From: an uncultured bacterium
GTDB taxonomy: Bacteria > Patescibacteriota > Minisyncoccia > UBA6257 > GWB1-50-10
NCBI GenBank assembly: GCA_963713955.1
Contig: OY970216.1
Coordinates: 442,252-506,251, forward strand
DNA length: 64,000 nt
Direction: 5' to 3'
Positions within the stretch are counted from its first letter, which is position 1. Every line of letters begins with the position of its first letter. Positions 9,904 through 58,196 of this stretch are shown here, piece by piece. The notes under the pieces were generated by a model. It had not been told where the DNA came from, did not search any database, and worked only from the letters and a program-made list of their open reading frames with translations. The position numbers and the translations under genes are program-made.

Positions 9904-9914
9904 CCCCGCACCGA

Positions 9915-12043: not shown

Positions 12044-12121
12044 GGGCTCGGTAAGGCGAAAAAGTGGGTAAGACTTGGCCTAGCGGCCCGGAGCGCACAC
12101 TTTTTCGGCTTGCCGGGCCCC
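12044..12121. repeat. structured palindromic repeat, family F1 copy C (reverse orientation), between convergent genes
   Basis: ~78 bp; 10-bp stem CGAAAAAGTG/CACTTTTTCG plus inner hairpin; 3 copies in window. Confidence 0.7.
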
Positions 12122-12129
12122 GCAGTGTC

Positions 12130-13833
12130 TTACCTCAGGAACTTATAACTCACTTCCTTGGCACCAGGCACTCTCTTGATCTTCACGACAAGCGTTTCCA
12201 ATTTCCCCTGCGAGAGCGCCGGGCAGCGGAGAATCACCGTCGAGAAAGTCGAGCGGTGGTCCGTCTCGCTCGTGAGGTAAGTTATGTTTATTTTGGAGTT
12301 GGCGAAAACCTCGGTAATGTCTTTCAAGAATCCCGGCCGATCCAGATTGACGATTTTGAACTCCACTCCCTTCGGTGCAATCTTGCCGACGAGTTTCCGT
12401 TCATTCTCGTTGATCGCGCTTTTGACTTTTTTCTTGGCTTCACTCGTTTTCACGAATCGGAGCCACCCTTCCGAAGGTTTCTTTCCTTTTTGAGTGACTA
12501 TTTCCACGACGTCTCCCGATTTAAGTTCGTAATCCAAGGGCGTGATTTTGCCGTTCACGCGAGCGCCGACGCACGTGTCGCCGATTTGGGAATGAATGCG
12601 ATAAGCGAAGTCAACCGGCGTCGATCCGGCGGGAAGATCGATCACGTCGTTGTGGGGCGTGAAGACGAAAATCCGATCCTTAAAAAAGTCTACTTTCACC
12701 GAGTTCAGGAATTCTTTCTGATTCGGAAACGCTTTTTGCCAATTTTGGAGTTGTTTTACCCATGTCAATTCTTTTTTATTCTTGACGCCTCGCCACCCGG
12801 CGACCGATTTGGTCGATTTCTTTTCCTGCTCGTAAGCCCAGTGGGCGGCGATGCCGAGCTCGTTTTCCTCGTGCATTTCCTGAGTTTTGATTTGCACTTC
12901 CAGGATCTTGTTGTCCAGGCAGAAGACGGTGGTATGCAAGCTCCGGTAGCCGTTCGGCTTCGGCCGGGCGATGTAATCTTTGAAACGGCCAGTCATCGGC
13001 GGCCACAAACTGTGAATGACGCCGAGCGTCGCATAGCACTCTTCGACGGTTCCGACGATGATGCGGAGCGCCACGAGATCGTAAATTTCGCTCAAATTCA
13101 TGTTGTGACGCAGCAGTTTCTTGTACAAACTGTAGTATCGTTTGGCGCGAGCATCGATGTGGAGCGGATGGATGTTCTTTTCTTCCAACGTTTTCTCTAT
13201 GATCGGGACGACCTTCTTGACGTATTTCTGACGCTCTTCGAAGGTATCTTTCACCTCCTTGAGGAGCCATTGGTATTCTTCGGGGTGGATGTAAGGGAAA
13301 GCGAGATCCTCGAGTTCCCCGGAGAGTTTCTGCATGCCGAGGCGATAGGCGAGGGGGGCGTAGATTTCCGACGTTTCGAGGGCGAAGATTTTCTGGCGTT
13401 CCGGGAGCAGGAACTCAAGCGTCTGCATATTATGCAGGCGGTCGGCGAGCTTCACGATGAGAACGCGGAGATCTTCGCTGAAGGCAATGATGAAACGGCG
13501 CATATTCTCGGCGTCTTGATTCTGGGGATATTGGAGATTCTCGAGTTTCGTGAGCCCCTGGACCAGGAAGGCTATTTCCTCGCCGAAGTTTTTCTTGATC
13601 TCGTCGATCGTGACCGTGGTGTCTTCCACGACGTCGTGGAGGAGGGCGGCGGCAACGGATGCTTCGTCCAAATTCCATTCGCTTACGCTCCGCGCGACCG
13701 CGAGGGGATGAGTGATGTACGGTTCTCCGTTCATTCGCTTTTCTCCCTCGTGGGCTTTCTGTGCGAAGTCATAGGCTTTTTGGATCAAAGGAGAGTTTGT
13801 TTTTTCGACCCACTCTATTGACATATATTGCAA
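12130..13833 (-). CDS. rel: bifunctional (p)ppGpp synthetase/hydrolase Rel (HD, synthetase, TGS, ACT domains; short form)
   Basis: HD motif HDVVEDT, synthetase RIIVGTVEECY, TGS GDTCVGARVNGK. Confidence 0.9.
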   Translation of the reverse strand: MQYMSIEWVEKTNSPLIQKAYDFAQKAHEGEKRMNGEPYITHPLAVARSVSEWNLDEASVAAALLHDVVEDTTVTIDEIKKNFGEEIAFLVQGLTKLENLQYPQNQDAENMRRFIIAFSEDLRVLIVKLADRLHNMQTLEFLLPERQKIFALETSEIYAPLAYRLGMQKLSGELEDLAFPYIHPEEYQWLLKEVKDTFEERQKYVKKVVPIIEKTLEEKNIHPLHIDARAKRYYSLYKKLLRHNMNLSEIYDLVALRIIVGTVEECYATLGVIHSLWPPMTGRFKDYIARPKPNGYRSLHTTVFCLDNKILEVQIKTQEMHEENELGIAAHWAYEQEKKSTKSVAGWRGVKNKKELTWVKQLQNWQKAFPNQKEFLNSVKVDFFKDRIFVFTPHNDVIDLPAGSTPVDFAYRIHSQIGDTCVGARVNGKITPLDYELKSGDVVEIVTQKGKKPSEGWLRFVKTSEAKKKVKSAINENERKLVGKIAPKGVEFKIVNLDRPGFLKDITEVFANSKINITYLTSETDHRSTFSTVILRCPALSQGKLETLVVKIKRVPGAKEVSYKFLR

Positions 13834-17588: not shown

Positions 17589-18035
17589 ATGAAAGTGCGC
17601 GATGTTATGATAGCGCCAGTCATAACGGTATCGCCGTGGACGACATATGAAGATACCGCGCTTTTGCTTTGTGCCCGCAACATCAGCGGCGTGCCGGTCG
17701 TGAACGACGAGGGCGAACTCGTAGGTATCGTATCGGAGAAAGATCTTTTCCGTGCCATGTATCCTCGCTACGAGGAATACATTTTGGAGCCGCATGCATT
17801 CTGCGATCGGGAACTTCAGGAGGAAGAAATCAAGACTGTCCGAAAGCAGCCGGTCGAAAAATATATGTCGAAGCAAGTGGTGACGATCGACGCCGATGCC
17901 CCCATCCTCCGGGCCGGCGGCCTTATGCTCGCGCGAGGCCTTCACCGGCTGCCCGTCATTGACAAAGGGAAACTTGTCGGCATCGTCACGCGGGAAGACA
18001 TTTACGGTACCATTCTCAAAAAACACTTGGGTTGA
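17589..18035 (+). CDS. CBS domain pair protein
   Basis: two CBS repeats (GVPVVNDEGELVGIVSEKD / RLPVIDKGKLVGIVTRED). Confidence 0.8.
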   Translation: MKVRDVMIAPVITVSPWTTYEDTALLLCARNISGVPVVNDEGELVGIVSEKDLFRAMYPRYEEYILEPHAFCDRELQEEEIKTVRKQPVEKYMSKQVVTIDADAPILRAGGLMLARGLHRLPVIDKGKLVGIVTREDIYGTILKKHLG

Positions 18036-18112
18036 CACGGAATGTATCAGTGAGGTAAATTAAACTCTGGTCCTTAAGAACCTTTTTGCAGACATTGTGA
18101 TGGATAGGTTTC

Positions 18113-19237
18113 TTTAGACAGTCACTCGACAAGTTTTCTCGTCGTTTTTTCATTCTCTCACACTGCTATCTTCTCTGCAAACACCGAAGGCGGCATCCTG
18201 AGAGCGGAGTGGATTCTTGTATGGTTGTACTCCCAAAGCGTTCGGTAGATCTCCGCCACAAGTTCCCCTAAGGATCTGAACCGATTAGGATCGCCAAGAT
18301 CCATTTTGAATTTTCCGTAGAAAGATTCTTGGTATCCGTTCTCCCACGGCGATCCGGGGCGTGAGCGGGAGATGGTGATGCCGTAGCGCTCAAGCATAGC
18401 GATGAACGCCTTCGCTTCGTATTCCCTCCCGTTGTCAGAATGGAAGATCACGGGTCGCGGGCAATGGAAGAGCGCGTTCGCCAGAGTTTGGATGGTGAGC
18501 GTCGATCCCTTCCGGGTCGCCACATGAACGCCCATCAGTTGCCTCGTAAACAGGTTAAGGATCGTTGATACGTACAGCTTCTTCCCGTGAAAGACAAGCT
18601 CCGTGAAATCCGTCGCCCAGACATGGTTCGCATATGATGGCATAATGCCGAGGAGGAGGTTCGGGAAGTGCCGTTCCGCCTTGGATTTCCTGTATTTTCT
18701 CCCATGCCTGCGGTAGGGCTTGATGCCGTAAATCCGCATGACCCGTTGCGCTCTCGGTCTGCCGATGCCGAGCGCAATCGCCAGTCGGCGTGAGCCGTAT
18801 GAGGGATGCTCGTGAAGCACCTCCTCCGTCCGGACCTTTAATGCCCAATCCTTCTTGTCCTGCGTTGCGACGTAATAGAGCGATGAGCGCGAGACACCCA
18901 TGGCGCGAGCCAGGGCGGATACGTTCCTTTCCCTGCTCAATTCTTTTTTTGGGTCTGGGACAGCTTGATCGTGAGTTCACCGATCACTTCGAAGAGTTCC
19001 TGATTCTGTTTCTTTAGGCGATTGATTTCTCCCCAGGAGGGAGCGCTCGTGGCACCGGCGCCGAGCCATCCATACACGGTTGTCTCGTGGACGCCTGCAT
19101 CTTTTGCCGCTTCTGCGACGGAGACGCCTTCTTCCTTCACGCGGCGGACAATCTCCGCTTTTACCTCTTTCGCTACCCGATATCCTTTTTTGTTAGCCAT
19201 GACACAATGGTAATTTGTTCCGACCTTTGTGTCTAAA
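18113..19237 (-). mobile_element. IS3-family insertion sequence (copy 1): orfA 18937..19200 (HTH) and orfB 18158..18940 (DDE integrase) on minus strand; ends approximate
   Basis: orfA/orfB overlap typical of -1 frameshift; DDE core HSDNGREY...PWENGYQESF; terminal TTTAGACA(G/C) at both ends. Confidence 0.8.
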
Positions 19238-19265
19238 TTTTCCTATCCGGAACATACTAAGAGTA

Positions 19266-19296
19266 GAGGTCGCAGGTTCAAGCCCTGCTGTCTGCA
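19266..19296 (+). pseudogene. tRNA-like 3' half (T-arm GCAGG-TTCAAGC-CCTGC plus acceptor TGTCTGC-A) immediately downstream of IS copy 1
   Basis: complementary acceptor 5' strand GCAGACA lies at 18088-18094 just upstream of the IS, which suggests an IS-split tRNA-like gene. Confidence 0.4.
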
Positions 19297-19505
19297 CGAC
19301 TCACGGGTAAAGGCAAGCCCTATCTCCTGAGGATTAAAATATACTCGCATCCCCATCCGGGATAAAAGGCGAGGTGCCCGGAGGATAGAGCTTAATATCC
19401 CGTGTGGCATGGTATCTTCCATGCCTTTTCCCATGCGTACGAAGGTGGCCTGTTCCTAATATAAGCCACCTTCTCTTCCTATTTGCTTTGTTGTATAATC
19501 GACAC

Positions 19506-22080: not shown

Positions 22081-22680
22081 ATGGGATCAATACTGACTTT
22101 TCTTCTCTCTTATCTCCTTCTCTATAAGTACGCGGCACTTTTCTTGATAGTCTTCTCGTCGGCCATGATACTGCCCTTGCCGGTGACGGAGGTCATGCTC
22201 GCCGTGGGAGCGTTCGTCGGCCAAGGCTATTTCGACTTTATAATCTCCCTTACCGTCGCCCAAGTTGCCAACGTTTTGGGCGATCTCGTGGACTACGCGA
22301 TAGCCAGGAAATACGGTTATGGGGTTATCCATAAATTGAGACTAAATAGATCCCGTTTTTTTACAAAGTTGGAACAGGAAATGCAGGTGCACGCGAGATC
22401 GACCATTTTCGTGACTCGTTTCGCCGGAGGATTGGGACCCGTTGTCAATCTTCTCTCCGGAGCCATAGGGATATCTCTCCGAAAGTTCCTTGTTTACGAT
22501 TTTGCCGGTAACCTCGTTTACTACATCGCGGCGCTTTTGATCGGATACTGGGCCGGAAGTTATTGGGAGAACTTCTCGGAGCTCATGAGTCTCGTCGTGG
22601 GAATCTTAGTCGTCGTCGTCGTGATGATTGCTCTTTGGAGGATTTACAAAAGAATAAGATTGAACCACTCCAAACATTAG
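22081..22680 (+). CDS. DedA/SNARE-associated family membrane protein
   Basis: DedA-like topology and motifs. Confidence 0.75.
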   Translation: MGSILTFLLSYLLLYKYAALFLIVFSSAMILPLPVTEVMLAVGAFVGQGYFDFIISLTVAQVANVLGDLVDYAIARKYGYGVIHKLRLNRSRFFTKLEQEMQVHARSTIFVTRFAGGLGPVVNLLSGAIGISLRKFLVYDFAGNLVYYIAALLIGYWAGSYWENFSELMSLVVGILVVVVVMIALWRIYKRIRLNHSKH

Positions 22681-22683
22681 GAG

Positions 22684-22756
22684 ACCCGGCAAGCCGAAAA
22701 AGTGTGCGCTCCGGGGCGCTAGCCCAAGTCTTACCCACTTTTTCGCCTCACCGGGC
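22684..22756. repeat. structured palindromic repeat, family F1 copy A, between convergent genes
   Basis: cccggcaagccGAAAAAGTGtgcgctccgGGGCgctaGCCCaagtcttaccCACTTTTTCgcctcaccggg. Confidence 0.7.
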
Positions 22757-22770
22757 CTCCTGTGGTAGAT

Positions 22771-23583
22771 TTAATCCTTTGAAAGCGTCAAGAGAAGCGG
22801 GTCGTGGTCCGAGAGCGGGGGATCCAGGTATTCCGGTTCATATTTCACGACCCTCAAGCCCATTTTATCGATGTTTCTGACGAGCATGTAATCGTATCTT
22901 TTGGGGAAACGTATCCTGTTTCGCCAATTGTCGACGTACGCGTTGCCGGGCCGGTAGGTCGGTTGCATTCGCTCGCCGTCCTCGAGTTTTATCGGGCTCG
23001 AGAATCCCGTCGTTTTGAAAAGCTCGGTGAATTCGTCTTCTCTCATGAGATAATCCTCGTTGAAATCTCCGGCGATTATCGTCGGCAGTTGGTCGCCGTT
23101 CGTTTTCATGATCATTTTCGTCGTCTGGATGAGACGGATCTTCCGGTCGAAGAAAACGGTCTCATGATGCATGTGAGTGTTCACTATTTTGAGATTACCG
23201 AGAGGAGTCTTAACCGTCACTTCGAGAAATCCTTTTCGTCCGAACGCCTCCGTTATCGTCGAATTCAAGAAGCGACCATAAGGGACAAAGCGGCTGCTTA
23301 CGACGGGGAATTTGGAAAAAACGACCAGTCCGCCGGTTACGTCGAACAATTTGATGAAAAGGATGCGCCGGTGGTCTTTCGCGTCGCCGGCGATTTGATA
23401 TTTGTCCTTGAGTTTGTCGCGCAGAAAGGCACGGTTATAGATATCAAAAGATTCCTGAAGGCAGACGATGTCGGCATCCGAGTTCCGCAGATACTCTGCG
23501 ATGCCAGCTACCCTCTTTTTTCTGTCCTTGACGAACCAGAACGGCAAATCCCAAATATTGAAGGTGATAATCTTTATTTGCAC
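22771..23583 (-). CDS. endonuclease/exonuclease/phosphatase (EEP) family protein
   Basis: EEP fold motifs (ITFNIW...CLQE...D...HD). Confidence 0.75.
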   Translation of the reverse strand: MQIKIITFNIWDLPFWFVKDRKKRVAGIAEYLRNSDADIVCLQESFDIYNRAFLRDKLKDKYQIAGDAKDHRRILFIKLFDVTGGLVVFSKFPVVSSRFVPYGRFLNSTITEAFGRKGFLEVTVKTPLGNLKIVNTHMHHETVFFDRKIRLIQTTKMIMKTNGDQLPTIIAGDFNEDYLMREDEFTELFKTTGFSSPIKLEDGERMQPTYRPGNAYVDNWRNRIRFPKRYDYMLVRNIDKMGLRVVKYEPEYLDPPLSDHDPLLLTLSKD

Positions 23584-24843: not shown

Positions 24844-25422
24844 TTATTTGAGTTTTATCTCAATTCGCACGTCAATGCCCTCATCGCCAATCCTTTCGGT
24901 GCTGTTCAGCCACACTTTCTCCGGCACCGCTTTATATATGCGTCTTGGCCGCGAATCAAGGAAACGGCTCACGTCTCTCAAAGTTTTCTTCTTCCTCGTG
25001 TAGAGGAGATAAATCGCTCTCACCATCTCTTTAAGGTCGGTGACTACCGATGCCCGCGCTTGAACGTATACGCCTTCTCCCGTCCCTTCGGGCACGGTTG
25101 AATCATAGATCACGAGGAAAACGTCCGGCTTTTCGGTGATGTTCTTGCTGTGCTGGGCCGCGCGGGGCGAAACCCAATAAAAGGTGTAATTATTCTTATC
25201 GTAGGCGGAGTACACGGGGCTATTCCACGGCTTGCCTTCCGGAGTGACGGTCGCAATCGTGATATAGATTATTTTCTCTATGATCTCTTTCGCGCGTTTT
25301 ACCAATTCCTCCTGCATGCGATAATTGTATCTCTTTAAACTTATCCTATCCAGGGAGCAATCGATCACTGTTTGATCTTTGACAGCGTGAAGCGTCCGGT
25401 GTATTTTATTTTCAATCGGCAT
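24844..25422 (-). CDS. pyridoxamine 5'-phosphate oxidase-like FMN-binding split-barrel protein
   Basis: general-stress-protein-26-type fold motifs; probable ATG start at 25422. Confidence 0.55.
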   Translation of the reverse strand: MPIENKIHRTLHAVKDQTVIDCSLDRISLKRYNYRMQEELVKRAKEIIEKIIYITIATVTPEGKPWNSPVYSAYDKNNYTFYWVSPRAAQHSKNITEKPDVFLVIYDSTVPEGTGEGVYVQARASVVTDLKEMVRAIYLLYTRKKKTLRDVSRFLDSRPRRIYKAVPEKVWLNSTERIGDEGIDVRIEIKLK

Positions 25423-25427
25423 TCTCA

Positions 25428-25727
25428 ATGAAAAAATATTCCATCGGAAAATCGAGGATACACGGTAAGGGAATCATTCTCTCTAAAGATGTTAAGAAAA
25501 ACGAGGCCATTTTTGTTTTCAAGGGAAAGGATATTTATTATTCTGGGGGGATCTGGTGGAAAGAACCGGACTCGCTCCAAGTAGGGTATATCCACTGGAT
25601 AAAGCCACTGGCCGGCTCTCCCGGAGCGTATCTGAACCATTCGTGTAATCCGACTGCCGGCATCCGCGGCAACAGGATTATCGTCGCGATGCAGCCTCTC
25701 AAGAAGTGTAAAGACCCCCAAAGTTAA
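25428..25727 (+). pseudogene. SET-domain protein (lysine methyltransferase fold), C-terminally truncated at the IS copy 2 boundary
   Basis: GKGIILSKDVKKNEAIFVFKG N-SET region and NHSCNPT (NHSCxPN) motif; post-SET ELxxDY region absent; ORF runs into IS end. Confidence 0.6.
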
Positions 25728-26824
25728 GACACTTTTTCGACAAGTTTCTGGTAGCGATTCGAGAACAGTGCAGGCGGCATCCTGAGGGCGGAGTGGATTC
25801 TCCGGTGGTTGTAGTCCCAGACCAGGCGATGGATCTCGTAGACCAGCTCTCCCAGCGATTTGAACCTCTCCGGATCGCCCAGATCCACCTTGAACTGGGA
25901 GTAGAAGGACTCCTGGTAGCCGTTCTCCCATGGCGATGACTTCCTCGATCTCGATATCCTGACGCCGAGGTTCAAAAGAGCTCCGGTGAAGATCCTTGAG
26001 CCATACTCCCTTCCGTTGTCCGAGTGGAAGATGTTGGGTCTCGGATGATGTTCCGCCGCGGAGAAGAGTGCCTGGAGGACCAGAGGCACCGAGTGGGTAT
26101 TCATCACGGCCCAGCCCACGATCTCCCTCGCAAACAAATCCATCACGGTGGCGAGATACAGGAACTTCCCTTGGTACGGGATGTACGTGAAGTCCGCCAC
26201 CCAGATATCGTTCAATCCTTTGGGGAAGTTCTTCTGAAGGAGATTGGGATACAGGATACTCGAGAAGCCCGTTTTCCTTGGCCTTCTGCCCCTTCTCCGA
26301 TATGCCTTCATCCCGAAGAGCCTCATCACCCGTTGGGCTCTTTTTTTGTTGATCTTGAGCTCCAAAGCCACTCTTCTGAAGCCGTATGAAGGATGGTCTC
26401 TCAAGACTGATATGATCCTTTCCTTGAGCGACCAATCCTTGGGCGATTGTTTCGAGACATAGTAGAGGGAGGCGCGGGAGAGGCCGAGTTCACGGGCAAG
26501 TTCCCACTTCGTCTTCTTCTGCTTTTTGATCAACGCTTTTTTTGAGTGCGTGAGGAGGCCAGGGTGAGCTCGCCCACGAGGGCGAGGAGCTCTTCGTTCT
26601 GGCGCTTGAGGCGGACGAGTTCACCGATCGTGGGGGTGCCTTTCACGCCCCTTCCCAGCCAGTTGTATATGGTGGCGGGATTCAGACCGTGTTCCTTGGC
26701 GGCCTGGACGACCGGGATCCCTTCCTCCTTGATTCTCTTCAATATCTGCTCCTTCACCTCGGGAGCAGTGCGATATGTTTTCTTCATGACACAAGGGTAT
26801 ATTGACTTCGACCTTTGTGTCTAA
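25724..26824 (-). mobile_element. IS3-family insertion sequence (copy 2): orfA 26530..26787, orfB 25724..26533; ~50% aa identity to copy 1, so a distinct IS of the same family
   Basis: DDE motifs, orfA/orfB overlap; ends TTAAGACAC ... GTGTCTAA homologous to copy 1 ends. Confidence 0.8.
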
Positions 26825-26845
26825 TATATGGGGGTCAGGCCACTC

Positions 26846-26903
26846 CTTCGCTAAAGCTTCGGACGGGCACAGCGATACTGCGCTGATGCTGGCTGCCGAG
26901 AGT
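26846..26903. repeat. 58-bp direct repeat (family F4 copy a): ctccttcgctaaagcttcggacgggcacagcgatactgcgctga..tggctgccgag, a candidate att site
   Basis: 54/58 identity to 29722-29779, which overlaps the 3' end of tRNA-Gln. Confidence 0.65.
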
Positions 26904-27063
26904 CTATTCTCACCGGTATAGATTTATCCGCTTAAACTCTCACTTTTTATTTTATCACTCCGGTTCGAATTCCGGGCGGGTCGTCAAAAAAACAGAATCA
27001 CGTCTCAAGATGAATGCCTACGCGTTTTCAGTAAGGATATCTATTTTTTGATATAATTAACTT

Positions 27064-27354
27064 ATGAATAAAAAGGTATTATTAATTGTTTTAATAGTCG
27101 TGGTTTTGGCCCTAGCAGGGGGCGGTTACTACTATTGGAAAATAAAAATGCAAAAAGCCCCTGAGGCTTCAAAGCCCGCGGCGCAACAAGCAACGGAGGA
27201 TATTCAAAAAACAGTAACTGGTGTTGCAGCTGACGTTGGCAATAGCGTTTCGCCAAACGTAACAACGCCGATTGTCACTCCGACTCCACAAGACGCCAAT
27301 CCCTATAACAAAACCAATCCTTTTTCAAATTTAAAAACCAACCCTTTCCAATAA
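27064..27354 (+). CDS. small membrane-anchored protein with C-terminal TNPF repeats
   Basis: N-terminal TM helix; NPYNKTNPFSNLKTNPFQ tail; -10 TATAAT at 27050. Confidence 0.5.
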   Translation: MNKKVLLIVLIVVVLALAGGGYYYWKIKMQKAPEASKPAAQQATEDIQKTVTGVAADVGNSVSPNVTTPIVTPTPQDANPYNKTNPFSNLKTNPFQ

Positions 27355-27363
27355 ATAGAAACG

Positions 27364-29583
27364 ATGAATAAAAAAACTTTAAGCGTTCTCGTTATTATTT
27401 CCGGAATTTTAGTTTCTGGCGCAATAATCGGTTTTGCTAAGGCCCAAATAACAACGAATCAGTCGGTGCAAACTCAGCCACCGCAACCGCAGGAACAACA
27501 AACGCCAGAGAACATCCAATATCCCATAAAGGAATTGGGCAATTGCCAAAGCAAAGAAGATTGCAAGGTTTTTTGCGATGATTCCAAAAATTCCGATGCC
27601 TGTCTGGCTTTTGCCCAGCAAAATAATTTGATGAGTTCTGATGAAATAGTCACCGCCAAAAAATTTATGGATAACGGCATGGTCGGCCCGGGCGGCTGCA
27701 AGGGACAAACCGCATGCGATCAATACTGCGGCAACTCCGATCATTTGGAAGAATGCATCACTTTCGCCCAAAAAAATGGGATGATGTCAGCCCAGCAACT
27801 GCAAGATTCCCAAAAGGTTTTGGCGGCTATCAAGAACGGACTAAAACCTCCTGCTTGCGCCGGCCCTCAACAATGCAACGCATATTGCAGTAGCCCCGAC
27901 CATATGGAGGAGTGTATGACCTTTTCTTTGGCGGCTGGAATTGTACCGGACAATCAGAAAGCACAAATGCAAAAGACCTTGGATGCCATAAAACAAGGTG
28001 TAAAACCACCGGCTTGCCAACCAACCCCGCCGCCCGGTCAAATACAATCCAGCCAGTCCGGACAGAGTCTGCCGGCATGCGACACGTATTGCAGTAGCCC
28101 CGACCATATGGAGGAGTGTATGACCTTTTCTTTGGCGGCTGGTATGGTGTCGGACAATCAGAAGGCACAGGTACAGAAAACTTTGGATGCCATAAAGCAG
28201 GGCATCAAACCACCGGCTTGCCAACCTAACCCACCTGGCCAGTCCGGCAAACCCGGACAGCCTGGACAATCCAGTCAAACCAATCAATCCAGTCAATCTG
28301 GACAGGGACTGCAACCATGTGACCAATATTGCGCAGACCCCACTCACGTTGAAGAATGCGTGAAATTTTCCGTGGCAATGGGAAACATGACCGAACAGCA
28401 GGCGCAAACTGCCATAAAAAACGGCAACAAGGGTCCCGGCGGATGCATCGGTAAAGATGCCTGTGACGCTTTCTGTAATAATCCCGACAACCAAGAAACT
28501 TGTTTCAATTTTGCCAAAGACAACGGAATGGTCCCGCAAGACCAACTTCAACAAATGCAAGCTAGCCAGCAAAAGATGAAAGATTCTTTCAGTCAGATAC
28601 CTGCGGAGGTTCTAACTTGCATAACGAACTCGGCGGGTGCCGATGTAGTTGAGGAGATGAAAAGCGGTTCGTTTATACCCAGCCAAAGCGGTGAAGCCAT
28701 AAACCAGTGTTTTCGGAATTATGCTCCGCAGAACCAAGTACCGAATCAAAATCAGCCTGGACAGCCAGGGCAAGGCGGCCCGAATAATATGCCCGGAGAT
28801 TTAAGGGATTGCCTTCAATCTCAAGTTGGCGAAGATGGTCTGGCGAAAATTCAATCAGGAAATGTTGATGACCCCGTTTTAATGGAAAAAGCAAAAACTT
28901 GCTTTGATAAATACGGCCAGCCTGGTCAATCTAATCAACCGATGAATCCAGGACAGCCTAACCAGTCGGGACAATCCGGTTCAATGCAACCAATGATGCC
29001 CGGTGTTCAGTTTGCTTCGGGAACCGGTCCGAATGTGCCGTCATCTCCCCAGCAGGGAGTCATGTCGTCCGGAACCCAATTTGCTCCCCGTACAGGACCG
29101 AGTATGCCGCCGCCAAATTTTCAAAATAATTTTCCCGGCGGACCGGCAAGCGGCACAACTATTGTGGGACCAGGCGGTTGCAAGACTCCCCAAGAATGCG
29201 CGGCGTTCTGCGCTAGCAATCCTCAAATCTGCAACAATTTCCAGCCGCCATCTTCCGGGCAGCAGGGGCAAATGCAGCCGATGATGCCTCCGCAAGGAAT
29301 GAAGTCTGGCACAGAGTTCGCTTCCGGAACCAGTCCGAATATGCCACCGCAGGAAGGAATGCCCCTGAATCCGACAACGCCGCTCAATGAGACGAAATCT
29401 CCTCCCGGAGGAACGCAGCCTCAGTCCGGAACGCAAGAGATGATACCGCAAGGCGGAATGCAGCCATTCGTGTCTCCGCCTCCTCCGCCTGCGCCCGGAA
29501 CTACATCGACCACATCTGGCTTGCAGAACCAAGAATTCCTCGGGGCATTGATTGAATTGTTCCGGCCCGTATTCGGCCTCTAA
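27364..29583 (+). CDS. secreted cysteine-rich repeat protein: signal peptide, seven CX5CX3CX8C modules, Q/P-rich linkers, proline-rich C-terminus
   Basis: Sec signal MNKKTLSVLVIISGILVSGAIIGFAKAQ; modules such as GPGGCKGQTACDQYCGNSDHLEEC...FAQKNGMM; repeats 3 and 4 near-identical at DNA level. Confidence 0.75.
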   Translation: MNKKTLSVLVIISGILVSGAIIGFAKAQITTNQSVQTQPPQPQEQQTPENIQYPIKELGNCQSKEDCKVFCDDSKNSDACLAFAQQNNLMSSDEIVTAKKFMDNGMVGPGGCKGQTACDQYCGNSDHLEECITFAQKNGMMSAQQLQDSQKVLAAIKNGLKPPACAGPQQCNAYCSSPDHMEECMTFSLAAGIVPDNQKAQMQKTLDAIKQGVKPPACQPTPPPGQIQSSQSGQSLPACDTYCSSPDHMEECMTFSLAAGMVSDNQKAQVQKTLDAIKQGIKPPACQPNPPGQSGKPGQPGQSSQTNQSSQSGQGLQPCDQYCADPTHVEECVKFSVAMGNMTEQQAQTAIKNGNKGPGGCIGKDACDAFCNNPDNQETCFNFAKDNGMVPQDQLQQMQASQQKMKDSFSQIPAEVLTCITNSAGADVVEEMKSGSFIPSQSGEAINQCFRNYAPQNQVPNQNQPGQPGQGGPNNMPGDLRDCLQSQVGEDGLAKIQSGNVDDPVLMEKAKTCFDKYGQPGQSNQPMNPGQPNQSGQSGSMQPMMPGVQFASGTGPNVPSSPQQGVMSSGTQFAPRTGPSMPPPNFQNNFPGGPASGTTIVGPGGCKTPQECAAFCASNPQICNNFQPPSSGQQGQMQPMMPPQGMKSGTEFASGTSPNMPPQEGMPLNPTTPLNETKSPPGGTQPQSGTQEMIPQGGMQPFVSPPPPPAPGTTSTTSGLQNQEFLGALIELFRPVFGL

Positions 29584-29721
29584 ATATTTCTACTCGCGTT
29601 AGTTCGAATCCAGTCGGGTGAAAAGAGAACACCAATCCGAATTCTAAAAAGGTCACGGGTCTCGGATTAGAACTGATATTCAAAAAAGATAGAATTTAAG
29701 GCTCTCCGGTCTCGCTCCCTC

Positions 29722-29779
29722 CTTCGCTAAAGCTTCGGACGGGCACAGCGATACTGCGCTGACTGTGGCTGCCGGGCTT
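29722..29779. repeat. 58-bp direct repeat (family F4 copy b) overlapping the last 14 nt of tRNA-Gln
   Basis: see 26846-26903. Confidence 0.65.
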
Positions 29780-29839
29780 GGATTCGAACCAAGATACTGG
29801 GCTCCAAAGGCCCATGTCCTACCGTTAGACGACCCGGCA
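29766..29839 (-). tRNA. tRNA-Gln (anticodon TTG), CCA encoded
   Basis: manual fold: acceptor TGCCGGG/CCCGGCA, anticodon loop CTTTGGA, T-loop TTCGAAT. Confidence 0.8.
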
Positions 29840-29884
29840 ATAAAAACTTTTCATAATGGTATAATGGAGTAAACTAAATATCAA

Positions 29885-30571
29885 ATGAATCAGATTCTAC
29901 TTTCAATCTTTCTAAGTCCAGCTTTGAATTACATTCCTGAGATATTTTTCGGGCTGCTGATTTTATTCGCCGGAATACGGTATTACGCGAGGCTCAGGAG
30001 AGGGGACCTGGAAGGAATCAAGACAAGCCGATTCTTCGGGAAGCTCATTCTCGTCGCGATCGGCTTCAAAACCCTCTACGCGGCGCTTCTGACGTGGGGA
30101 CAATACGTTATCTGGAAATCGAGTACATTGGCATCGGCGCTCCTTTCGGAAGCGGTCGTGAAAGACAAAGCTGGCATTGCGGGAGCGTTTCCCAAACTTT
30201 TCGACGAGAAGGGCGGTTATTTCCTTTACTACTCCTTGAGCCACTTCTGGCTCGAATTCGGAATAACGCTCGTTCTCGGCCTGGCTTTCTATCTTCTCCT
30301 TATGTCGTTTCAAAAGAAGAACCCGCGGTTTCTCACGTTGGCTGATGCAAGGCTCGGACTTCTGGGCGGAATCACAGCTGGCTGGCCTGGCTTCGTCGTG
30401 TACCTTTTCGGCTTCGCCCTGATCTTTCTCCTCTATGGTCTTGTGAGGAAATTGGTACTGAAAGAAGAATACACCCCTATTACAGAGCCGCTTTTCATCG
30501 CGGCCTTCCTCGCCGCCGCCTTCGGCTTCTGGATTATAAACTTCTTGGGACTGTCAGCTCTAAGGATTTAG
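29885..30571 (+). CDS. polytopic membrane protein, possible A24 prepilin-peptidase-like
   Basis: LADARLGLLGGITAGW resembles the GDFKLLAALGAW catalytic-Asp region; weak. Confidence 0.35.
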   Translation: MNQILLSIFLSPALNYIPEIFFGLLILFAGIRYYARLRRGDLEGIKTSRFFGKLILVAIGFKTLYAALLTWGQYVIWKSSTLASALLSEAVVKDKAGIAGAFPKLFDEKGGYFLYYSLSHFWLEFGITLVLGLAFYLLLMSFQKKNPRFLTLADARLGLLGGITAGWPGFVVYLFGFALIFLLYGLVRKLVLKEEYTPITEPLFIAAFLAAAFGFWIINFLGLSALRI

Positions 30572-30584
30572 AAATCGCACTAAA

Positions 30585-30665
30585 GCTGACTCGGCAAGCC
30601 GAAAAAGTGTGCGCTCCGAGCCGCTAGGCCAAGTCTTACCCACTTTTTCGTCTCACCGAGTCAGC
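30585..30665. repeat. structured palindromic repeat, family F1 copy B, between convergent genes (overlaps dnaX stop)
   Basis: outer stem gctgactcgg/ccgagtcagc, inner stem AGCC-gcta-GGC covaries with copies A and C. Confidence 0.7.
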
Positions 30666-31786
30666 TATTTGCTATTAATTCCCTGGAGCCCTTCCACAAT
30701 TGCTACCTCGAGAGGAATCCTCGGGAACTGGCTGTAGCGCATTTCGCCGTAGGCATTGATGAGCACCTTGATAAGCCCCACGTGAGCTTGCTTGAAGTTT
30801 TTGGACTGGGCGACGAGTTTCTGAAGATGTTCCGGCATCATTTCTTTTTTGAAAACATTTTCCATGGGAGGGCTCGCCCGGAGGACGAGGATTCTCCGGA
30901 GGTATTGGATCACGTCCCGCAAAAACTGGCTCAAGCTGAACCCGCCGTCGGCTATCTCTGAGACGAACTTCAAAGCGCTCGCTTCGTCTCCCTTTACCAA
31001 AAACTCCGTAAACTTATCTATTTTGTCGAAATTAATTTTCCCGACGGCTTTCTCAATTTCCTCAACTTCTATGCTCTTGTCGCCGAGCGAAATCATCTGG
31101 TCGAGAAGCGACTCGGAATCCCGGAAACTGCCTTCCGCGTAGTCAGCGATGAGATCCAGGGCTTCATCGGAGATTTTCACTTTCTCCTCCTTCGTGATCT
31201 TCGTGAGCTTTTTCACGATTTCCTCGCGGGGGACGAGCTTGAAATAAAATTTCTGGGCGCGGGAAGCGATGGTCGCGGGGACTTTCTCTATTTCGGTCGT
31301 CGCGAGAATGATGATGATGTACGCCGGCGGCTCCTCCAGGGTTTTCAAAAGCGCGTTCCAGGCGTCCTTCGTCAACATGTGCGCTTCGTCGATGATGTAA
31401 ACTTTGAATCTCGCGGAAGCCGGAGCGGTCCGTATGGATTCCTTGAGATTCCGTATCTCGTCCACGCCGCGGTTCGACGCGCCGTCGATTTCGAGAACGT
31501 CGAGCGTTTTCCCCTCGTCTATCCCGAGACATGTGGGGCAGGCGTTGCACGGCTCTCCTTTTTTCTTGAATTCCGGGTCCTTCGCCCGCTTCTCGCAGTT
31601 CGCGATTTTCGCGATGAGCCTCGCCGACGTGGTCTTCCCCGTGCCGCGGGGGCCGGAGAAGATATAGGCGTGCGAAAGCCGGTCCTGCCGGGCTTCTTCC
31701 TTCAGGATTTTCACGATAGTCTCCTGGCCCAAGAGATCCTCGAATGTAGCTGGCCGGTATTTTCTATATATGGCGAGGTGGGGCAT
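30665..31786 (-). CDS. dnaX: DNA polymerase III subunit gamma/tau (short form)
   Basis: Walker A GPRGTGKTT, zinc module CNACPTC, clamp-loader motifs. Confidence 0.9.
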   Translation of the reverse strand: MPHLAIYRKYRPATFEDLLGQETIVKILKEEARQDRLSHAYIFSGPRGTGKTTSARLIAKIANCEKRAKDPEFKKKGEPCNACPTCLGIDEGKTLDVLEIDGASNRGVDEIRNLKESIRTAPASARFKVYIIDEAHMLTKDAWNALLKTLEEPPAYIIIILATTEIEKVPATIASRAQKFYFKLVPREEIVKKLTKITKEEKVKISDEALDLIADYAEGSFRDSESLLDQMISLGDKSIEVEEIEKAVGKINFDKIDKFTEFLVKGDEASALKFVSEIADGGFSLSQFLRDVIQYLRRILVLRASPPMENVFKKEMMPEHLQKLVAQSKNFKQAHVGLIKVLINAYGEMRYSQFPRIPLEVAIVEGLQGINSK

Positions 31787-31851
31787 GGATTAATTATACA
31801 AGGGATTAGGGTCTAGGGGTAGAGTATTTTATAATTAATCTGTGGGCCAAA

Positions 31852-32391
31852 ATGGCGATAATCTTGATACTTGTCGTTTTAATAACGGCGGGGTTCGTGC
31901 TACTATTTGAAGGAAGAGAAAACGATCTTGGGAACATGGGAAATCTAACGCTCAAAAGCTCGGCTTTCAAAGAAGGGGACACGATCCCGAGGAAATTCAC
32001 CTGCGATGGCGAGAACGTGAATCCGCTCTTGGAAATAAAGGATACGCCGACCGGCACGAAAAGCTTTGTCCTCATCGTGGACGATCCGGATGCCACGAAC
32101 GGCAAGACGTGGGACCATTGGGTCATGTGGAACATTGATCCGAAAACTCAGTACATCATGGAGGACAATCTGCCGTCGGGCGCCGTGCAAGGCATAAACA
32201 GCTGGAACAAAAATAAATACGGCGGACCGTGCCCGCCCCAGGGTGCGAAGCCGCACCGGTACATGTTCAAACTCTACGCACTCGATGCGGCGCTTGATCT
32301 TGCAACTTCTTCGACGGCAGCCGACGTGGAACGAGCGATGGCGAACCATGTTATCGAAAAAACAACCCTCATGGGGCTTTACGGGAGATAA
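31852..32391 (+). CDS. YbhB/YbcL (PEBP/Raf-kinase-inhibitor-like) family protein
   Basis: DDPDA...W.HW...GPCPPQG..HRY motifs. Confidence 0.8.
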   Translation: MAIILILVVLITAGFVLLFEGRENDLGNMGNLTLKSSAFKEGDTIPRKFTCDGENVNPLLEIKDTPTGTKSFVLIVDDPDATNGKTWDHWVMWNIDPKTQYIMEDNLPSGAVQGINSWNKNKYGGPCPPQGAKPHRYMFKLYALDAALDLATSSTAADVERAMANHVIEKTTLMGLYGR

Positions 32392-34639: not shown

Positions 34640-34702
34640 TAGGTCGTCTCTTAAAAAATGAGACGACCTTTTCCCTTTTCGGTATGTTATAATAAAGTGG
34701 AA

Positions 34703-35887
34703 ATGTCCATCCATTCTCGTTCTTCCTTCACCCTGATCGAGCTCCTGGTAGTCATCGCCATCCTTGCCGTCCTTGCAACCGCCGTCGTCTTGGTCTTGAA
34801 TCCCGCCCAGCTCTTAGCTCAAGGAAGAGATTCAACCAGGCTCTCTGATCTCTCTGCCTTGAATAGTGCCCTCTCCCTCTTCCAGGCAGATCAATATACC
34901 CAGTCCTTAGGGACTCCAAATACCCTCTACGTATCAGTTCCCGATACCACATCCACCTGTGCCAATCTGGGACTGTCTTCTCCTCCTATAGGATGGGCCT
35001 ATCACTGTGTTCCAAGCTCTTCCTCAACAAGAGTAGACGGAACAGGCTGGATTCCCGTGAATCTTACCCTCCTATCATCAGGATCCCCTTTATCCAAGCT
35101 CCCGATAGACCCTACGAATACCACTAGTTCTGGACTCTACTATACCTACGTATCAGGAGGCTCCTATGCCTTATCCAGTGCCTTGGAATCACAGAAATAC
35201 CTTGTATCCACCGCATCCCAAGACCAAGGCTATGATCCTGGGAGGTATGAGATCGGTTCTGACCTATCCCTTATTGGAAGGAGTGAAGGATTAGTAGGAT
35301 GGTGGCCCCTGGATGGAGACCCGGGGGACAGGAGTGGGAACGGGAACAATGGGACGTGGTATGGATCCATGATCGGAGGTTCTTACTATACGGGAGGGAA
35401 GATCAACCAGGCTGGGAACTTTAATGGGACGGATGATTATGTGAATGTTCCAACGAGCCCGTTATTACATCCCTTGAGCTACGTTACGGTTTCTGCCTGG
35501 GTAAATATGACATCGTCAACTGGCCCATTTGATGGAATCACTACTGATAACGGCAACGACTACTATTTGCAAGCACAATGGCCCAAGTGGCGTTTCTATG
35601 TCATTAACACCTCTAGTGTATATAAAGATGTCTTTTCGATAAATAACATTACGACTGGGCAGTGGTATTTTTTAACCGGTGTCTACGACGGATCGAACGT
35701 TTCCCTATATGTCAATGGCGTTCTACAAGCACAAAATCCTCAAACAGGGAACATACAAAATTCGGCCGGAAACATAACAATATCAACGGGTGGACGTCAT
35801 TTTTATGGAACGATCGACGACGTCCGCATCTACAACCGAGCATTGTCCGCGGCAGAGATTCAGGCGATTTATAATGCACAAAAGTAG
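34703..35887 (+). CDS. type IV pilin-like protein with C-terminal LamG/concanavalin-A-like lectin domain; paralog 2 of 3 (ORF track start 34658; probable ATG 34703)
   Basis: FTLIELLVVIAILAVLA prepilin motif; C-terminus ...DDVRIYNRALSAAEIQAIYNAQK typical of LamG_3 jelly-roll domains. Confidence 0.85.
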   Translation: MSIHSRSSFTLIELLVVIAILAVLATAVVLVLNPAQLLAQGRDSTRLSDLSALNSALSLFQADQYTQSLGTPNTLYVSVPDTTSTCANLGLSSPPIGWAYHCVPSSSSTRVDGTGWIPVNLTLLSSGSPLSKLPIDPTNTTSSGLYYTYVSGGSYALSSALESQKYLVSTASQDQGYDPGRYEIGSDLSLIGRSEGLVGWWPLDGDPGDRSGNGNNGTWYGSMIGGSYYTGGKINQAGNFNGTDDYVNVPTSPLLHPLSYVTVSAWVNMTSSTGPFDGITTDNGNDYYLQAQWPKWRFYVINTSSVYKDVFSINNITTGQWYFLTGVYDGSNVSLYVNGVLQAQNPQTGNIQNSAGNITISTGGRHFYGTIDDVRIYNRALSAAEIQAIYNAQK

Positions 35888-58166: not shown

Positions 58167-58196
58167 TTTCTCTTGTCTTGTAGTATAATTAACCTA

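Follow-up and report, generated by a model that had tools for sequence, protein, structure and literature searches.

A 2.9-kb segment carrying a two-gene operon lies against the 3′ end of tRNA-Gln in a Patescibacterium with an 805-kb genome, enclosed by two direct repeats (R1 and R2) that include this tRNA end. We tentatively interpret R1 and R2 as the attL and attR of a Campbell-type integration, by which the segment would have been recombined into the tRNA-Gln end, and we regard the locus as an ordinary tRNA-linked islet in a decayed state. Little has been mapped of the mobile elements and integration sites of the Patescibacteria (CPR), whose tiny genomes come mostly from metagenomes, and the single tRNA-Gln gene beside dnaX is a recurrent site of insertion and rearrangement in one clade.

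Results

The features of the locus are given below by their position in the window, that is, the whole 64-kb stretch of DNA that was analysed.

24844..25428, minus strand: PNPOx-like gene; native DNA downstream of tRNA-Gln
25428..25706, plus strand: probable SET-domain gene, 5′ fragment cut by the IS; weak PF00856 match
25707..26842, minus strand: IS3-family insertion sequence, copy 2 (orfA 26530-26787, orfB 25724-26533; HTH_Tnp_1 and rve)
26843..26898, plus strand: R1, distal repeat copy; its 44 nt as in R2 are followed by 3 mismatched nt and by 9 nt that reproduce the tRNA-Gln 3′ end (reverse complement)
26845..26862, plus strand: hairpin core CCTTCGCTAAAGCTTCGG in R1; lower stem broken by the IS end at 26842; covariance model (CM) score 27.5 bits
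27064..27354, plus strand: operon gene 1, 96-aa protein with an N-terminal TM helix and C-terminal NPF/NPY repeats
27364..29583, plus strand: 739-aa secreted protein with a signal/anchor, about six Cys-rich modules and a Gln/Pro/Gly-rich tail
29719..29774, plus strand: R2, tRNA-proximal repeat copy; ends in the 9 nt CGGCAGCCA, which form the 3′ end of the live tRNA-Gln
29721..29738, plus strand: hairpin core in R2; lower stem 29717-29720 with 29739-29742, 3/4 positions paired; CM score 37.2 bits
29766..29839, minus strand: tRNA-Gln(TTG), CCA encoded (ARAGORN; Rfam RF00005, 61 bits)

The two repeats are identical at 44/44 positions in their outer part (26843-26886 and 29719-29762), differ at three adjacent positions (TGC at 26887-89, CTG at 29763-65) and agree again at 9/9 positions (26890-98 and 29766-74, TGGCTGCCG), beyond which identity drops to about 50%. 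TGGCTGCCG represents the final 9 nt of tRNA-Gln(TTG), CCA included. This pattern matched twice in the window and never in 100 shuffles; a repeat search of the window extended it to 72 nt at 86% identity, and R1 runs on as a degenerate T-arm-like stretch up to 26914. A first-pass annotation of this DNA had placed a 58-bp repeat at 26846-26903 and 29722-29779 with a 14-nt overlap with tRNA-Gln. The repeat exists, but it is shifted by 3 nt and the 58-bp span is only about 90% identical, and by the tRNA limits of ARAGORN and Rfam the overlap shrinks to 9 exact nt (or 10/11 over the 3′ acceptor strand, discriminator and CCA), which leaves 47 of the 56 repeated bases beyond the tRNA. On its inner side, the repeat ends at the T-arm/acceptor boundary of tRNA-Gln. 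Two T-loop-like fragments that had been noted just inside the repeats turned out to be background: the window contains 8 copies of GTTCGAAT where 5.1 are expected, which is chance level, no partial tRNA match was found at E ≤ 10, and local alignments to the tRNA 3′ half did not rise above background.

An independent Logan contig (L105) matches 28113-29762 at 100% and stops exactly where the 44-nt identity ends, the outcome expected from a true two-copy repeat. The same sequence is present in run ERR10755942. The 44-nt block constitutes the trailer of tRNA-Gln, which is not conserved among the genus relatives, none of which carries the trailer repeat. Which copy is native is ambiguous from these sequences, since the trailer of relative L100 (CCA-GCATCA) matches R1 and the native trailer of the distant genome L003, AGTCAACGCA, is closer to R2. 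The 31- and 26-nt cores of the repeat had no match in viral or metagenome contigs, which yielded neither an attP-bearing element nor a second strain. Likewise, the 56-nt unit was not dispersed in the window or in the viral and metagenome collections; the dispersed copies that would have spoken against the island of the first-pass annotation were not seen there.

As that annotation described, the repeats bracket two genes, which encode a 96-aa membrane protein and a 739-aa Cys-rich secreted protein. The latter matched no Pfam or NCBIfam family and has 727 homologues; orthologues of the 96-aa protein (66-76% identical) always directly precede the large gene elsewhere, and the operon is conserved as a unit across hundreds of Patescibacteria. 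It was free of flanking repeats and of a linked integrase in nine other contexts, direct repeats sought around it in three other genomes were not found, and neither viral contigs nor GenBank phages contained a relative of it. The compositional skew that had been suggested as a check was seen in GC3 (0.38 and 0.49 for the two genes versus a window median of ~0.60, with 0.38 the window minimum), but the overall GC of the island is not distinct; the nearest homologues of the operon genes are in lower-GC genomes. The earlier observation that no integrase remains was upheld, in that the island holds no recombinase, both of its genes lack a recombinase domain, and the ORFs tested in the 64-kb window (most of those of 180 aa or more) gave no Phage_integrase or Resolvase match and no Y1 transposase.

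IS3 copy 2, correctly located directly outside the left repeat by the first-pass annotation, scores 215 bits against NCBIfam transpos_IS3, has inverted repeats that both begin with TG, and abuts R1 exactly (26842|26843). No target-site duplication accompanies it. Since the IS cuts the outer repeat in the lower stem of the hairpin, the repeat was once longer by some amount, and the missing target duplication together with the truncated SET gene and R1 hairpin argues that adjacent DNA was deleted. The 5′ gene fragment does end at the IS, as had been proposed, but support for its SET identity is weak: PF00856 matches over profile positions 1-75 of 105 with E = 0.004 and a score of 17.9 bits, short of the 22.4-bit cutoff. 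Another IS3 copy lies 7.6 kb off (18096-19254), is about 75% identical and is likewise without a target duplication. A composite transposon was rejected, given a single adjacent IS, a second copy of only ~75% identity and the absence of target duplications. Removing each IS in silico restored no tRNA.

Five genus-level relatives (L001, L081, L087, L097 and L100) keep dnaX, a 228-aa gene and tRNA-Gln, and their DNA similarity to the window ends at 29764-29768, which is the tRNA 3′ end. The DNA downstream of tRNA-Gln is different in each of the five, and none has the operon within 10 kb of this tRNA. With regard to the empty site that the first-pass annotation had suggested looking for, these five do have tRNA-Gln minus the operon, but their DnaX proteins are 83-86% identical to that of the window, too distant for a true empty site for the R1/R2 repeat. 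A DnaX tree places the window in a nested position, as the sister of L100, which makes a single gain more parsimonious than several losses. Furthermore, a PNPOx orthologue (78% identity) lies 2.7 kb from tRNA-Gln in L087, so the operon of the window sits between the tRNA and native DNA.

The same tRNA has received other DNA. In L087 we found a 170-bp insert in which the tRNA-Gln 3′ end is directly repeated over 18 nt; the displaced native end and trailer match the intact tRNA-Gln end of its sister L097 at 92%, and the two form a clean occupied/empty pair at one tRNA. The insert (152 bp) has no similarity to the island ends, and thus different DNAs were inserted. In two distant genomes (L003 and L059) a GIY-YIG element of ~335 bp sits in the tRNA-Gln 3′ end, between 12- and 15-nt repeats that copy the host's own tRNA end. 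All of these integrase-type insertions (L087, L003 and L059) likewise stop at the T-arm/acceptor boundary, and they establish tRNA-Gln as a recurrent insertion site. A tblastn search of the window with both GIY-YIG proteins gave no remnant of such an element (nothing below E = 0.2).

The outer 20 nt of the repeat form a covarying hairpin, N4-CC-UUC-GC-UAAA-GC-U(A/U)C-GG-N4', which L003, L059 and 45 unrelated IMG/VR contigs also contain. Its core is invariant over contigs of 30-71% GC, and its lower stem covaries. The covariance model recovered just two copies in the 64 kb, those in R1 and R2, and no copy in the genus relatives; the score falls from 37 bits (R2) to 27 bits (R1), where the stem is cut at 26842|26843. 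In both copies the repeat continues for 36 nt past the hairpin and takes in the tRNA 3′ end. The repeat folded on either strand is not unusually stable (z −1.4 to +0.3), so the hairpin is recognisable as structured through comparative data alone. It had no match in Rfam or in GenBank phages, its sequence string did not occur in the papers searched, and the neighbours of the hairpin in the 45 contigs share no protein family. A different hairpin repeat family, of 85-100 nt, occurs three times in the window.

Discussion

In the integration that we tentatively propose, the incoming DNA would have brought its own copy of the tRNA-Gln 3′ end and trailer, so that the tRNA (with R2) stayed whole and R1, the other copy of the 3′ end, came to lie 2.9 kb from it. 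What is left would be a non-autonomous element with a conserved surface-protein operon and no recombinase, and because the recombinase is absent, it could move solely via an integrase encoded elsewhere that acts on the repeats. Later, the IS3-family element would have entered R1 at its outer edge, in the hairpin base, and then deleted neighbouring DNA, erasing the outer flank; such a deletion would account for both the absent target duplication and the half SET gene. We infer in this way an external origin of the segment, site-specific rather than homologous recombination, and this order of events.

A displaced copy of a tRNA tail bracketing a segment is the usual scar of insertion at a tRNA gene, and the uneven identity along the repeat fits a recombination junction rather than the uniform decay of an old duplicate. 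In tRNA att sites the block of identity normally lies inside the tRNA; identity that lies mostly in the trailer (44+ nt, with 9-11 nt of tRNA) is therefore atypical and weakens the att reading. The occurrence of the conserved operon elsewhere without repeats or integrases weakens its reading as mobile cargo. The integration proposed in the first-pass annotation is thus partly supported: the tRNA and a direct copy of its 3′ end do occupy opposite ends of the segment, as attL and attR would, but the repeat is mostly trailer and a duplication fits the geometry as well.

Such a duplication would have imported nothing. The operon would already have stood beside tRNA-Gln, a 2.9-kb unit running from the left spacer through the operon and right spacer into the trailer and the final 11 nt of the tRNA gene would have been doubled in tandem, and the IS3 element would have deleted nearly all of the left copy, whose remainder is the 56 nt of R1. 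Trimmed by the IS in this manner, a tandem duplication fits equally well as integration. The order R1, junction at 26899, spacer, operon, spacer, R2 and tRNA is that of the right-hand part of a duplication, the deletion beside the IS and the identity that is unbroken up to it (implying a repeat once longer) are as expected, the conserved operon is probably a native gene pair, and no recombinase is present. However, a fresh duplicate should be identical, whereas 4 differences fall within the 14 nt beside the junction next to 44 perfect nt, and R1 agrees with L100 at 4/4 of the differing positions, which would require the live tRNA copy, not the relic, to have changed. Considering also that the five relatives lack the operon at tRNA-Gln and that its GC3 is low for the genome, we hold a duplication to be somewhat unlikely.

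Integration could also have proceeded without a site-specific enzyme: a very close relative would have supplied the DNA in circular or looped form, with the operon beside this tRNA-Gln trailer, and RecA would have crossed it over in the shared 56+ nt. A repeat that is long and mostly outside the tRNA, the lack of a recombinase, and a 44-nt perfect block in a species-variable trailer, which would make the donor nearly conspecific, all agree with homologous insertion of this Campbell type. We nevertheless find it improbable: a stretch of about 60 nt is short for RecA to recombine efficiently, the repeat has its inner edge at the T-arm/acceptor boundary as in L087, L003 and L059, and a donor with the operon already adjoining the trailer merely moves the question back. 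It is highly improbable that R1 and R2 are two landings of a dispersed hairpin-bearing repeat (REP- or MITE-like) and that the DNA between them is not a unit. The wide distribution of the 20-nt hairpin and the threefold occurrence of the other hairpin family in the window speak for such a repeat, but R1 and R2 are the only hits of the model in the 64 kb, with none in the genus relatives, both copies share the tRNA 3′ end and the 36 nt past the hairpin, and the complete unit did not occur in the viral and metagenome collections.

Islander maps genomic islands integrated at tRNA and tmRNA genes (PMC4383910). The segment resembles these islands in that one end carries an intact tRNA and the opposite end a candidate direct copy of the tRNA 3′ end, in a synteny break at the tRNA 3′ end and in lineage-specific content; it differs in being small (2.9 kb), in having no integrase, in a displaced fragment with 9-11 nt of tRNA and a repeat that is mostly trailer, and in holding a conserved lineage operon in place of typical accessory cargo. 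CIMEs are decayed ICEs or IMEs that keep attL and attR and have lost their integration and transfer genes (PMC5704250). Direct repeats at a tRNA 3′ end and the absence of recombination and transfer genes are common to both, but the segment has no signs of ICE/IME ancestry and no conjugation or mobilisation remnants, its repeats are candidate att sites, it has no tandem partner element (the IS may have deleted one), and its host is a Patescibacterium, in which conjugative elements are not established. The ssrA islands of Dehalococcoides involve a 20-bp ssrA repeat, a linked serine recombinase (DsiB) and many tandem units, some without an integration module, inserted repeatedly at one single-copy RNA gene (PMC3146451). 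Small genomes, direct repeats of an RNA-gene 3′ end and a plastic downstream region are found in both systems; in contrast, the single unit of the window is at a tRNA, lacks a recombinase and has its repeat mostly outside the gene.

Even a conserved surface-protein operon, then, can be repositioned at tRNA-Gln, and the plasticity of this site matters for the reading of synteny and for 'core' gene calls in Patescibacteria genomes. The locus is also a concrete place to seek excision and insertion in population data.

The covarying hairpin may matter more: it is short and exactly conserved, absent from Rfam, and found at tRNA-Gln ends as well as in environmental contigs of very diverse kinds. We know of no description of the GIY-YIG tRNA-Gln mini-element of L003 and L059, which targets the tRNA-Gln 3′ end, has short direct repeats of the tRNA end and carries the 18-20-nt hairpin motif by the tRNA end (19/20 identical). 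There, inverted copies of the hairpin surround a GIY-YIG ORF and 0.3 kb is enclosed, whereas in the window the hairpin occurs in one orientation without such an ORF, stands the other way round with respect to the tRNA and 26 nt away from it, and 2.9 kb is enclosed. Speculatively, the repeat could be an active terminus rather than a passive scar, belonging to a hairpin-marked class of mobile DNA, so far undescribed, that uses the hairpin as its recognition element and targets the 3′ end of tRNA-Gln, the GIY-YIG mini-elements being autonomous and the 2.9-kb unit a non-autonomous form that moves the surface-protein operon between Patescibacteria; we think this quite improbable.

IS1397 and ISKpn1, both of the IS3 family, insert into palindromic REP/PU hairpins. 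The IS of the window is likewise an IS3-family element within the stem of a conserved intergenic hairpin, but it sits at the stem base rather than in the loop, has no target duplication and represents one case. IS200/IS605-like elements and PATEs, which rely on a Y1 transposase in cis or in trans, have at each end a subterminal imperfect hairpin, the two in direct orientation; direct hairpins occur in the window, but here identity runs for 36 nt to one side of both.

Two copies of the tRNA-Gln 3' end

Two direct repeats, R1 on the distal side and R2 next to the live tRNA-Gln, flank a pair of genes. The 44 nt at 26843-26886 and 29719-29762 were all identical, followed by three mismatched bases (TGC in R1, CTG in R2) and nine identical bases, TGGCTGCCG (26890-26898 and 29766-29774). 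The 44-nt pattern matched exactly twice in 64 kb with up to three mismatches allowed, and it was never found in 100 dinucleotide-preserving shuffles.

Features around the repeats
25707-26842: IS3-family element (copy 2), HTH_Tnp_1 and rve, 215 bits against NCBIfam transpos_IS3
26843-26898: R1, then a 165-nt spacer
27064-27354: 96-aa gene
27364-29583: 739-aa gene, then a 135-nt spacer
29719-29774: R2
29766-29839, minus strand: tRNA-Gln(TTG), CCA encoded (ARAGORN and Rfam)

Given this placement of the tRNA, the nine shared bases are the reverse complement of CGGCAGCCA, the tRNA end. In the tRNA sense, R2 reads ...GGTTCGAATCCAAG-CCCGGCAG-CCA-CAG-TCAGCGCAG... and R1 reads ...GGTGAGAATAGACT-CTCGGCAG-CCA-GCA-TCAGCGCAG... 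The entire 3' acceptor strand is present in R1 with one C-to-T change, which can still pair as G-U, and the discriminator and CCA are also kept; R1 matches the T-arm at 8 of 14 positions and is at background further in. All lines of evidence identify R1 as a second copy of the tRNA-Gln 3' end and trailer, parted from the live copy by the two genes. The direct repeat with a tRNA 3' end described in the first-pass annotation thus exists, but its coordinates were 3 nt off, its overlap with the tRNA is 9-11 nt instead of 14, and the two T-loop-like fragments reported just inward of the two copies were indistinguishable from chance.

The ~20 nt next to the CCA (TCAGCGCAGTATCG) resemble the native tRNA-Gln trailers of three other genomes (L006, L003 and L100), with TCA(A/G)C..AG TATCG common to all of them; the first ~20 nt after the CCA therefore look like an ordinary trailer. 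In addition, an independent Logan contig matched 28113-29762 at 100% and stopped exactly where the 44-nt identity ends, as a true two-copy repeat would cause, so that an assembly error behind the repeat is unlikely.

A conserved operon lies between the repeats

Both genes expected there, for a small membrane protein and a 739-aa Cys-rich secreted protein, were present. The 96-aa protein has a membrane helix at its N-terminus, and the 739-aa protein combines an anchor or signal at the N-terminus with about six Cys-rich modules and a tail rich in Gln, Pro and Gly; neither had a Pfam or NCBIfam family above threshold or a solved relative. The larger protein has 727 homologues at E<=0.001 (among them P0010-P0129); this large family occurs across the Patescibacteria and has no Pfam, NCBIfam or PDB relative, and its members are always preceded by a ~90-aa membrane protein ending in NPF repeats. 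The gene of the 739-aa protein also contains repeated internal 204-bp modules (27873-28031 and 28077-28235). Since the same small gene stood before the large gene in every context examined (L093/94, L095, L096, L101-104, L107-L111), the pair is a conserved operon. These contexts elsewhere had no synteny in common, no flanking direct repeats and no linked recombinase, and searches of IMG/VR contigs and GenBank phages gave no relative. The N-terminal 450 residues of the large protein were 62-73% identical even to distant lineages, and a 74% match to L093 is thus not by itself evidence of recent transfer.

The evidence for a foreign origin of the operon is mixed. GC3 was 0.38 and 0.49, at the low end of the window (median ~0.60), the codon usage of the small gene was the most deviant among 53 window genes, and the closest operon homologues came from genomes of 40-45% GC. 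Against a foreign origin stand the unremarkable overall GC, the many homologues of the large protein, the conserved gene pair in other contexts that lack flanking repeats and linked recombinases, and the failure to find relatives on viral contigs or in phages. Downstream of the operon, at a distance of ~1.7 kb in two family-level relatives (L095, 6616-10871; L111, 10001-13990) and of 2.3 kb in the window (27064-32391), lies a PEBP-family (PBP) gene. This proximity may be left over from an ancestral linkage, in which case it would speak for an operon native to the vicinity of the locus, or it may be due to chance.

The operon is absent beside tRNA-Gln in relatives

For this Patescibacterium, the nearest genomes compared were 83-86% identical to the window in DnaX and 61-66% in the neighbouring 228-aa protein. 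The block of MPG, PBP, dnaX, 228-aa gene and tRNA-Gln(TTG) was kept in all five species-level relatives (L001, L081-86, L087-92, L097-99 and L100), and their DNA similarity to the window stopped at 29764-29768, the tRNA 3' end. The operon, which lies between PNPOx and tRNA-Gln in the window, occurred within 10 kb of tRNA-Gln in none of the five; the DNA downstream of tRNA-Gln differed in each species, each with its own selection from an overlapping pool of small genes (PNPOx, NUDIX, Exo_endo_phos, PEMT, RsgA, OmdA, GIY-YIG). The window PNPOx was 78% identical to that of L087 and is thus native DNA. In a neighbour-joining tree of DnaX, the window grouped with L100 inside the clade, and a single operon gain would therefore be favoured over several losses, although branches were short and the window appeared more divergent in the 228-aa protein. 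L001 (11900-12586) and L100 (4032-4724) have, immediately upstream of tRNA-Gln and on its strand, a ~230-aa ORF whose N-terminus weakly matches an HTH (Sleeping-Beauty or resolvase type); the ORF overlaps the tRNA 5' end in L001 and is absent from the window.

An IS3 element adjoins R1

The IS3-family copy placed just outside the repeats was confirmed, its right end touching R1 at 26842|26843. It has inverted repeats (TGTAAAGACCCCC... and TGGCCTGACCCCC...) and no 3-4-bp target duplication in its flanks (..gaag| and |ctcc..). On its far side, a 93-codon gene fragment does abut the element, but the match to a SET domain was weak (E=0.004, below threshold). Given the lack of a target duplication and the half gene on its far side, copy 2 most likely deleted adjacent DNA.

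IS3 copy 1 (18096-19254) is ~75% identical to copy 2 and likewise lacks a target duplication. Its right flank (19255-19300) resembles a tRNA T-arm and 3' acceptor strand (GCAGG TTCAAGC CCTGC TGTCTGC A), and its left flank (18088-18095) ends in the exact complement GCAGACA; ARAGORN found no tRNA after in silico removal of copy 1.

Insertions at tRNA-Gln recur in other genomes

Among the comparisons, those within other genomes gave the strongest support for integration at tRNA-Gln. In L087, 18 nt of the tRNA-Gln 3' end (GAATCCCTGCTCCCCAGC) occur twice, 170 bp apart (9896-9913 and 9726-9743). In the sister species L097, the intact tRNA-Gln 3' end with its native trailer (9832-9913) was 92% identical to the distal copy and the following DNA of L087 (9664-9743); the proximal copy of L087 forms a new end with CCA. 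L087 and L097 make an occupied/empty pair, the insert being gene-less.

Furthermore, in two distant genomes, L003 (Liptonbacteria) and L059, the tRNA-Gln 3' end contains a ~335-bp insert that codes for a GIY-YIG protein of 98-101 aa (Pfam, E=1e-15). The two proteins are 74% identical, though the DnaX proteins of their hosts are far apart. The inserts are flanked by direct repeats (12 and 15 nt) of each host's own tRNA end and bounded by inverted copies of a hairpin motif, and look like a mobile GIY-YIG mini-element homing to tRNA-Gln. Insertion with duplication of the tRNA-Gln 3' end, starting in the T-arm/acceptor region and running outward, thus recurs, and the inner edge of the window repeat lies at the same place as the inner edges of these duplications.

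A widespread hairpin is embedded in the repeat

The outer 20 nt of the repeat (TCCTTCGCTAAAGCTTCGGA, plus strand) were 19/20 identical to the L003/L059 motif, which lies 2 nt past the tRNA-Gln end and forms the terminal inverted repeat of the GIY-YIG element; the window copy points the opposite way with respect to the tRNA.

Hairpin core CCTTCGCTAAAGCTWCGG (18 nt) and GIY-YIG elements
Window: core at 26845-26862 and 29721-29738
L003: hairpin at 17954-17973; element at 17952-18297
L059: hairpin at 12511-12530; element at 12155-12532 (minus strand)
IMG/VR: core in L119-L163 (45 loci)

The core had 51 exact matches in 45 IMG/VR contigs of 30-71% GC, and a composition-matched permutation had none. 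The hairpin consists of a lower stem, CC/GG, a 3x3 internal loop, GC/GC and a UAAA loop, and the core is often followed by CAAGCC. Covariation was seen in the four base pairs next to the core, which had played no part in its selection: 48 cells were changed on both sides compared to 19 +/- 6 in shuffles, none of 500 shuffles reached 48, and slid controls were far lower. The core behaves as a genuine element of wide occurrence. Most copies of the motif lie between genes, without orientation bias towards neighbouring genes or a neighbouring protein in common among the bearing contigs; we found no Rfam family, no copy in cultured-phage records and no paper containing the sequence.

A covariance model from which the window sequences were left out gave 37.2 bits for R2 and 27.5 bits for R1 and found nothing else significant in the window or in genus relatives; within this stretch, the hairpin is therefore not dispersed as a repeat. 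R1 scores 10 bits lower because the left strand of its lower stem is replaced by the IS end at 26842; the outer repeat boundary is therefore set by the IS, and the original repeat exceeded 56 nt. This conserved hairpin is a more surprising result than the islet itself.

Origin of the repeats

The first-pass annotation had read the repeats as attL/attR, a reading that is partly supported. We rank such integration first, at somewhat less than an even chance: incoming DNA with its own tRNA-end/trailer copy would have integrated at tRNA-Gln, leaving R1 and R2. In its favour are the uneven profile of identity, the lack of the operon here in relatives, the low GC3 and the insertions at tRNA-Gln elsewhere. 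The mostly non-tRNA repeat and a conserved, non-accessory cargo count against it, as does the lack of a recombinase: as the annotation had noted, no integrase was found in the island, and neither tyrosine nor serine recombinases were detected there or in the window ORFs tested (most ORFs >=180 aa). Tandem duplication of the 2.9-kb unit with later IS trimming would account equally well for the geometry and the IS damage but leaves unexplained both the clustered differences and why R1, not R2, agrees with L100; we consider it unlikely, though the nearest competitor. RecA-mediated Campbell insertion from a near-conspecific donor is improbable, and two independent copies of a small hairpin repeat more improbable still.

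As in Islander-type tRNA islands, whose ends are marked by a regenerated target and a displaced fragment (PMC4383910), an intact tRNA-Gln and a putative displaced fragment of it lie at the ends of this locus, but it lacks the integrase required of such islands. It is like a cis-mobilizable element (PMC5704250) in lacking integration genes, and resembles the recombinase-less units of Dehalococcoides ssrA islands (PMC3146451). The locus is not a proven Islander-type island or cis-mobilizable element, and the repeats are only putative att sites. An IS3 composite transposon and a GIY-YIG mini-element were both rejected. Overall, the locus is a fairly ordinary tRNA-linked islet, small and decayed, whose host is unusual.

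Other repeats in the window

The rest of the window is housekeeping (dnaK, parAB, groEL, thyX, dnaX, ATP synthase genes, rpoD and ribosomal protein genes). There are also three intergenic copies, 81-96% identical (12045-12128, minus strand; 22674-22782; 30588-30687), of an element 85-100 nt long that has a 26-bp inverted repeat, looks MITE- or REP-like and had no Rfam match at gathering threshold. One copy lies between the 228-aa gene and dnaX, where the spacer of relatives is only ~43-114 nt. Additionally, two type-IV-pilin-like paralogues (N_methyl and Laminin_G_3; 34658-35887 and 58173-59432), 23.5 kb apart, share DNA stretches of 74-86% identity, and a third, partial copy lies in inverted orientation at 8705-8948.
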